Shown here piece by piece: positions 2,599 to 2,774 of a DNA stretch of 64,000 nucleotides (the stretch's first letter is position 1; the number at the start of each line of letters is the position of its first letter). The stretch lies in assembly GCF_058153355.1 (NCBI RefSeq), contig NZ_CM177019.1; one strand, given 5' to 3'. Below the pieces are notes generated by a model, which made no database searches, had not been told where the DNA came from, and was given only the letters and a program-made list of their open reading frames with translations. A program made the translations under genes and the position numbers.

Positions 2599-2731
2599 CG
2601 ATATTTCAGTGTCATTGAATTATGAGTGACAAAGTTACACCTTGAAATATCTCCGCATAATATATTCGGTGATGTCGGATTTTACTTTAACAGAGTGCCC
2701 CAAAATTGGGGCTCTGTTCATTTATAAATCA

Positions 2732-2767
2732 AACCGGGTGGTCTGGAATCGACTACACCACCCGGTC
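2732..2767 (-). terminator. Putative rho-independent terminator downstream of pgpA
   Basis: Perfect 10-bp inverted repeat ACCGGGTGGT...ACCACCCGGT just 3' of the pgpA stop; A/T-rich flank on the minus-strand downstream side. Confidence 0.5.
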
Positions 2768-2774
2768 AATGGCA

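Follow-up and report, generated by a model that had tools for sequence, protein, structure and literature searches.

The window analyzed here, a stretch of 64,000 nucleotides (64 kb) of contig NZ_CM177019.1, begins inside yajO, which is read from the plus strand and stops at 830-832, and its gene order is yajO, an open reading frame (ORF) of 511 amino acids, pgpA, thiL, nusB, ribH and ribD. The 511-residue ORF occupies 1063-2598 of the plus strand, with a TGA stop codon at 2596-2598. It matches the pentapeptide family PF00805 of Pfam (E 4.6e-16) and its product is 88% identical in amino acid sequence to EspY3 of E. coli O157:H7, which RefSeq lists as a T3SS effector pentapeptide repeat protein; the ORF is referred to below as an espY3 allele. 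The pgpA gene is read from the minus strand (2775-3290, stop codon at 2775-2777), and the pentapeptide gene and pgpA are thus convergent, as a sequence-only reading of the region had proposed. Their stop codons are separated by a spacer of 176 nt (2599-2774), which is the subject of this analysis. Small ORFs of 24-55 amino acids are present in the spacer and nothing supports them.

Comparison with K-12 delimits a variable segment of 1,946 bp (833-2778) that has no K-12 counterpart and a low G+C content (24-42%, versus about 52-58% in the flanks). K-12 homology extends as far as the yajO stop codon and is found again from 2779 onward, within the end of pgpA. Published work describes the O-island OI-26 of E. 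coli O157:H7 EDL933 as 1,983 bp with espY3/z0521 as its sole ORF (PMC8565820). In O157, the segment without K-12 counterpart starts immediately past the yajO stop, ends immediately before AGAATACCC in pgpA and has a length of exactly 1,983 bp, as published, and the variable segment of the window is likewise a piece of about 2 kb absent from K-12, lying between yajO and pgpA and holding espY3 as its sole ORF. The segment is therefore OI-26, and the exact borders of this islet in the window allele are fixed at 833 and 2778. The two versions occupy the same chromosomal site, carry the same single ORF and have flanks that are about 95% identical, but they differ in the effector, EspY3 being 523 amino acids long in O157 and 511 in the window (88% identity), and in the spacer, where 8 of 175 positions differ, including those at which the window has T2713 and A2760. 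In the window the islet stands in place of the 53-bp REP spacer and of the last codon and stop of K-12 pgpA. Accordingly, PgpA of K-12 has 172 amino acids and ends in ..PLGILS*, whereas the islet-bearing allele has 171 and ends in ..PLGIL*, its stop codon lying in islet sequence. Having replaced an ancestral REP-type spacer together with the last pgpA codon, the islet supplies the pgpA stop codon and, as predicted below, the pgpA terminator.

At the left border of the islet, the last ~430 nt of yajO (401-832) show 9-12 differences per 100 nt from K-12, compared with 1-5 further upstream. The same stretch is 6-9% different from most other espY3-positive strains and differs at only 3 of 409 positions from one of them (L031); it has the appearance of a recombination mosaic, or else of an old linked haplotype, bordering the islet. 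Within the left flank of the islet, 33 nt past the yajO stop, lies an 11-bp inverted repeat, TCCCCATCGTC/GATGATGGGGA (865-889). A U-rich tail after this repeat is absent on both strands, so yajO has no obvious intrinsic terminator in islet-bearing strains.

We found the spacer in 936 of 5,426 complete E. coli genomes, at 93-99.4% identity, always as a single copy and always accompanied by espY3 or an espY3 remnant. The whole espY3 interval is present in 932 of these 5,426 genomes and a K-12-type spacer in 4,487, which makes the site essentially biallelic. In a larger assembly collection, the common 171-residue PgpA allele was followed by a spacer of 176 or 177 nt and by espY3 in 10 out of 10 distinct contexts. 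All EspY3 relatives of at least 79% identity that carry a source name are from E. coli; the match that follows them has 24% identity. When GTDB species representatives were searched for EspY3 peptides as exact 8-residue words, only two short contigs were recovered, both identical to the E. coli locus. Of note, these are yajO-espY3-pgpA contigs of about 1 kb (JAIJJM010000929.1 and JAIJJM010000965.1) binned in a Collinsella sp. metagenome-assembled genome, which is evidently contaminated with the E. coli locus. As outgroups we used Citrobacter, whose PgpA is 92% identical, and one more distant relative, since all Escherichia PgpA sequences fall in one 90% cluster. In both outgroup taxa pgpA and yajO are directly convergent neighbors, separated by spacers of 45-104 nt that are REP-like or hold a single hairpin and are unrelated to that of the window. 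Taken together with the low G+C content and the restriction to E. coli, this adjacency supports a gain of the islet and agrees with the earlier description of the segment as an insertion. The pgpA-yajO spacer itself differs by lineage: two Citrobacter contigs show two REP arrangements (L033 and L034; 3020-3123), and the more distant outgroup has a single CCCCGGCA/TGCCGGGG hairpin between the two genes (L035; 3005-3049). The C-terminal residues of pgpA also vary among these three loci.

The effector gene is unusually polymorphic for a chromosomal gene. Among the window and loci L002-L032, the alleles encode 507-523 amino acids with identities down to 79%, and indels occur in the pentapeptide-repeat region, where the window allele has a 12-residue gap after residue 181. 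The first 130 residues of EspY3 and both flanks are nearly identical among alleles, and one genome carries a frameshifted espY3 copy. In another, the chicken-farm isolate with contig NZ_CM188746.1, an IS1A element replaces the equivalent of window positions ~827-2633, that is, the last two yajO codons, all of espY3 and the spacer to about 2633. The effector gene is lost here through an IS1-associated deletion that leaves the two right-hand hairpins of the spacer (HP2 and HP3, below) and the 171-residue pgpA allele intact.

Three inverted repeats had been noted in the spacer and all three were found at their places. The first, HP1 (GATATTTCA/TGAAATATC, 2600-2608/2643-2651, plus strand), is 9 bp long and perfect, with 34 nt between its arms. 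The core of the second, HP2, is the imperfect repeat AGTGCCCCAA/TTGGGGCTCT (2694-2703/2706-2715, plus strand), centered on GCCCCA/TGGGGC and extendable to ACAGAG..CTCTGT, so that the stem-loop covers about 2690-2717. The third, HP3 (ACCGGGTGGT/ACCACCCGGT, 2733-2742/2757-2766, minus strand), is a perfect and G+C-rich repeat of 10 bp with 14 nt between its arms. The title of the sequence-only reading spoke of two hairpins and its text listed three; folding bears out the longer count and adds a weak fourth structure, CCG.CAT...ATT.CGG, at 2653-2669 of the plus strand, referred to here as the middle hairpin. Both strands of the spacer were predicted to fold stably, with minimum free energies of -59.3 kcal/mol (plus) and -54.6 kcal/mol (minus) against shuffle means of -38.6 and -37.0. 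These values correspond to z scores of -5.1 and -4.2, and none of 200 shuffles was as stable. We also counted perfect inverted repeats of at least 9 bp with loops of 3-40 nt over the 64-kb window, using block-wise dinucleotide shuffles as a control. The window contains 32 such repeats, compared with 10.6 +/- 3.8 in shuffles; about 0.03-0.09 are expected per 176 nt and two are seen in the spacer. Elsewhere in the window, a very strong palindrome, CTATAGGGGGGTATGCATTGACATATAGCATACCCCCCTATAG (57526-57568, -29.4 kcal/mol), closely precedes an frmR-like ORF (57577-57873), which is followed by a frmA-type alcohol dehydrogenase gene (57908-59017). This palindrome, which has no connection with the spacer hairpins, is probably the frmRAB operator/promoter.

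The positions of the hairpins bear on the proposal that they mark the right boundary of the insertion. K-12 homology resumes 12 nt beyond the right end of HP3, and the border, at 2778/2779 in the region of the pgpA stop codon, lies beyond all of them. Judged from the alignment with the K-12 yajO-pgpA spacer, which is unrelated to that of the window, every hairpin is inside the OI-26 segment and none belongs to the K-12 core. The hairpins thus do not mark the boundary, and that part of the proposal was not borne out.

Two of the hairpins have the features of intrinsic terminators. HP2 (2690-2717, plus strand, -15.6 kcal/mol) and HP3 (2733-2766, minus strand, -20.8 kcal/mol) are each a stable G+C-rich stem followed by a U-tract, and each lies past the stop codon of a gene and has the orientation of that gene: the distance from stop codon to hairpin is 8 nt for pgpA and HP3 on the minus strand and about 92 nt for espY3 and HP2 on the plus strand. 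Between the two hairpins lies a 16-nt A/T-rich palindrome, TTCATTTATAAATCAA (2717-2732), that provides the U-rich tail of HP2 on the plus strand and that of HP3 on the minus strand. The tails were scored over the 15 nt after the stem with a decaying weight for U (the TransTermHP tail score). The HP2 tail TTCATTTAT is U-rich on the plus strand only (-3.03, versus -1.61 on the minus strand), and the HP3 tail TTGATTTAT on the minus strand only (-3.03, versus -1.80 on the plus strand). Since each hairpin has its U-rich tail on one strand only, HP2 would act for espY3 and HP3 for pgpA and the thiL-pgpA transcript. The first 9 nt after each hairpin contain 5-6 U; the tracts are interrupted and pass the threshold of -3.0 marginally, while the strongest U-tails in a scan of the whole window reach -4.4 to -5.1.

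A first terminator scan of the window (dG <= -12 over 45 nt, tail score <= -3.0) returned 236 matches, mostly inside genes, and was rejected as not discriminating. It was replaced by a search for compact hairpins (<= 38 nt, <= -15 kcal/mol, followed by a tail score <= -3.0) over the whole 64-kb window. This search led to 28 sites in 128 kb of strand, among which were both HP2 on the plus strand and HP3 on the minus strand, in both cases the sense strand of the gene whose end lies shortly before the hairpin; the expectation for 176 nt is about 0.04 sites per strand. A stricter terminator scanner flags HP2 on the plus strand and not HP3, whose 14-nt loop is above the limit of that program. Over 700-3400 this scanner reports 2 terminator-like sites, compared with 2.3 in shuffles, and hence no excess. 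The locus goes unmentioned in the supplements of RNA-seq and Ribo-seq work on strain Sakai (transcriptome and translatome), and the flanks of espY3 are not treated in the EspY3 paper.

HP1 is of another kind. It starts directly after the espY3 stop and consists of a 9-bp A/T-rich outer stem and a 7-bp inner stem (2610-2616/2625-2631). It has no U-tail, its tail scores being -1.6 and -2.4, and in one haplotype group (L007/L010) changes at 2607, 2613-2615 and 2644, none of them compensated, weaken it from -15 to about -8 kcal/mol. For the middle hairpin the predicted energies lie between -2 and -11 kcal/mol, depending on the haplotype. Both structures are probably non-functional and fortuitous, and at most part of a 3' UTR structure. 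The earlier picture of a compact terminator region shared by the two convergent genes consequently holds for HP2 on the plus strand and HP3 on the minus strand, and fails for HP1, which lacks terminator features and is not conserved in structure among haplotypes.

To follow the hairpins through the population, we reduced 23 spacer copies to 11 full-length haplotypes with a mean column identity of 96%. HP2 is predicted at -14 to -17.4 kcal/mol in all 11 haplotypes, HP3 at -17 to -20.8 kcal/mol in 10 of them and at -14.0 in the eleventh (L025), and the A/T palindrome at 2717-2732 is invariant in 11 out of 11. Most haplotypes have A at 2713, where the 9 bp of the HP2 stem, AGTGCCCCA/TGGGGCACT, pair perfectly around a loop of 4 nt; the T2713 of the window, which also distinguishes it from O157 and bulges the stem, is a derived state. 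At 2760 most haplotypes have T, an internal mismatch in HP3, and it is the A2760 of the window, again a difference from O157, that makes HP3 perfect. No pair has changed on both sides in the 11 haplotypes, an absence of compensatory covariation explained by their 96% identity. Two single changes keep pairing on one strand: C2700T preserves a U.G pair in the plus-strand RNA only (HP2 at -14.4 kcal/mol on the plus strand versus -9.9 on the minus strand), and G2737A, found in L025, preserves a G.U pair in the minus-strand RNA only (HP3 at -14.0 on the minus strand versus -10.7 on the plus strand). Both favor the strand expected of a terminator and, with one or two events each, are suggestive only. 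An extra constraint on the spacer as a whole was considered and rejected, because its mean pairwise divergence (3.7%) resembles that of the neighboring left flank (3.8%) and of pgpA (3.6%); fourfold sites of espY3 diverge by 5.4%. Alleles of EspY3 with amino acid identities down to 79% are accompanied by spacers within 1-5 differences of that of the window.

Taken together, these observations indicate that the spacer is probably the non-coding right end of the espY3 islet, with two Rho-independent terminators placed face to face between convergent genes. Among the alternatives, the one that survives best is that HP2 and HP3 are REP-like structures that protect 3' ends from exonucleases, transcription being ended by Rho or the RNA that reads on being trimmed back to the stems. 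REP elements function as 3'-end stabilizers, and the REP-type palindrome of K-12, which lacks a clean U-tract, sets a precedent for such a role at the allelic position. The interrupted and weak U-tails of HP2 and HP3 leave room for a stabilizer combined with Rho, and the low G+C content of the islet makes it the kind of foreign DNA that is a common target of Rho and H-NS. Against this, the U-rich tail of each hairpin is found on exactly the strand on which a terminator requires it and is absent from the other, and the A/T palindrome that the two tails share does not vary. We consider a purely protective role doubtful.

That all of the hairpins are functionless chance features of A/T-rich foreign DNA would fit with the lack of covariation, the lack of excess conservation and the decay of HP1 in some haplotypes. 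This reading does not account for the fold statistics given above, with no shuffle as stable on either strand, nor for two perfect repeats of at least 9 bp where less than one tenth of a repeat is expected, nor for the stems of HP2 and HP3, which are G+C-rich in A/T-rich surroundings and have their tails in the correct orientation. A chance origin is plausible for HP1; for HP2 and HP3 pure chance is unlikely, and as an explanation of all the hairpins it is very improbable.

Even less probable, in our view, is a small regulatory RNA, corresponding either to the espY3 3' UTR (2599 to about 2725) or to a shorter transcript running to HP2 from a promoter-like site at 2634-2661. The region is rich in predicted structure and its last element is a terminator-like hairpin, and the site in question is a sigma-70-like match, GTTACA-16-CATAAT, on the plus strand. 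However, this match is weak (9/12) and matches of this sort are rarer in the region than in shuffles (5 versus 9.2). A scan of 700-3400 with the covariance models of Rfam 15 gave no match at E <= 1 on either strand, HP1 and the middle hairpin are not conserved in structure, and the spacer is no more conserved than its neighbors. The literature searched contains no small RNA at the yajO-pgpA locus. Least probable of all is that the inverted repeats are relics of a mobile-element end or recombination site marking the islet border, as might be suggested by their place at the right-hand end of a segment that is low in G+C and was acquired horizontally: the border does not coincide with a hairpin, no direct or terminal inverted repeats join the islet ends, there is no tRNA or tmRNA gene, espY3 as sole ORF leaves no integrase or transposase, and the spacer is single-copy in every genome, without paralogous copies.

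Under the preferred reading of two convergent terminators, RNA polymerase transcribing espY3 on the plus strand would meet HP2 (about 2690-2717) and release its transcript in the U-rich run UUCAUUUAU, while polymerase transcribing thiL-pgpA on the minus strand would meet HP3 (2766 to 2733) and release in UUGAUUUAU. Both transcripts are predicted to have their 3' ends near 2723-2726. As one palindrome provides both U-rich runs, one from each strand, the transcripts should end a few bases apart, with almost no antisense overlap. That termination actually takes place at HP2 and HP3 we infer from the sequence features described above.

In strains carrying espY3, pgpA thus ends on a stop codon supplied by the islet and, by prediction, on an islet terminator. 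This could be read further, as a horizontally acquired single-gene islet that rewired the 3' end of a core gene, giving pgpA a foreign stop codon and terminator in about 17% of E. coli; we regard rewiring in that sense as improbable. In a bolder variant, the structured espY3 3' UTR ending at HP2 would, if the reading were true, be released as a regulatory small RNA. The predicted ends of the espY3 and thiL-pgpA transcripts are useful for designing espY3 deletions or reporters that spare pgpA, and beyond annotation the importance of the finding is small. What the spacer holds look like ordinary convergent intrinsic terminators in an already known islet, and no new mechanism is revealed.

The element that occupies the allelic position in K-12, between the same convergent genes, is also a strong hairpin: the 53-bp K-12 yajO-pgpA spacer contains the REP-type palindrome GCCTGATGAGACGTGACAAGCGTCACATCAGGC. 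The two spacers nevertheless have no sequence similarity, and they differ in copy number. A query containing the K-12 palindrome matched up to 6 places per genome, one match being to the palindrome alone, a pattern that a REP-type repeat would be expected to give. In contrast, a distant blastn search found no paralogous copies of the window spacer in any of the 936 genomes, so it does not behave as a REP element. Nor does the islet have the hallmarks of a mobile-element end or att site, since border repeats, a recombinase gene and a tRNA target are all absent. HP2 and HP3 come closest to the intrinsic terminators of E. coli, which they resemble in having a G+C-rich stem-loop followed immediately by a U-rich run on the transcribed strand. 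They depart from them in their interrupted U-tracts, in the 14-nt loop of HP3, the usual loop of an intrinsic terminator being 3-8 nt, and in that a single palindrome supplies both tails, one per strand. The bidirectional terminators reportedly described by SEnd-seq between convergent genes consist of one hairpin with an A-tract on one side and a U-tract on the other. The spacer would resemble them in serving two convergent genes within one short stretch and limiting antisense read-through. It is unlike them in that two hairpins are present, neither of which has a U-rich tail on more than one strand, and the element that the two genes share here is the A/T tract and not the stem.
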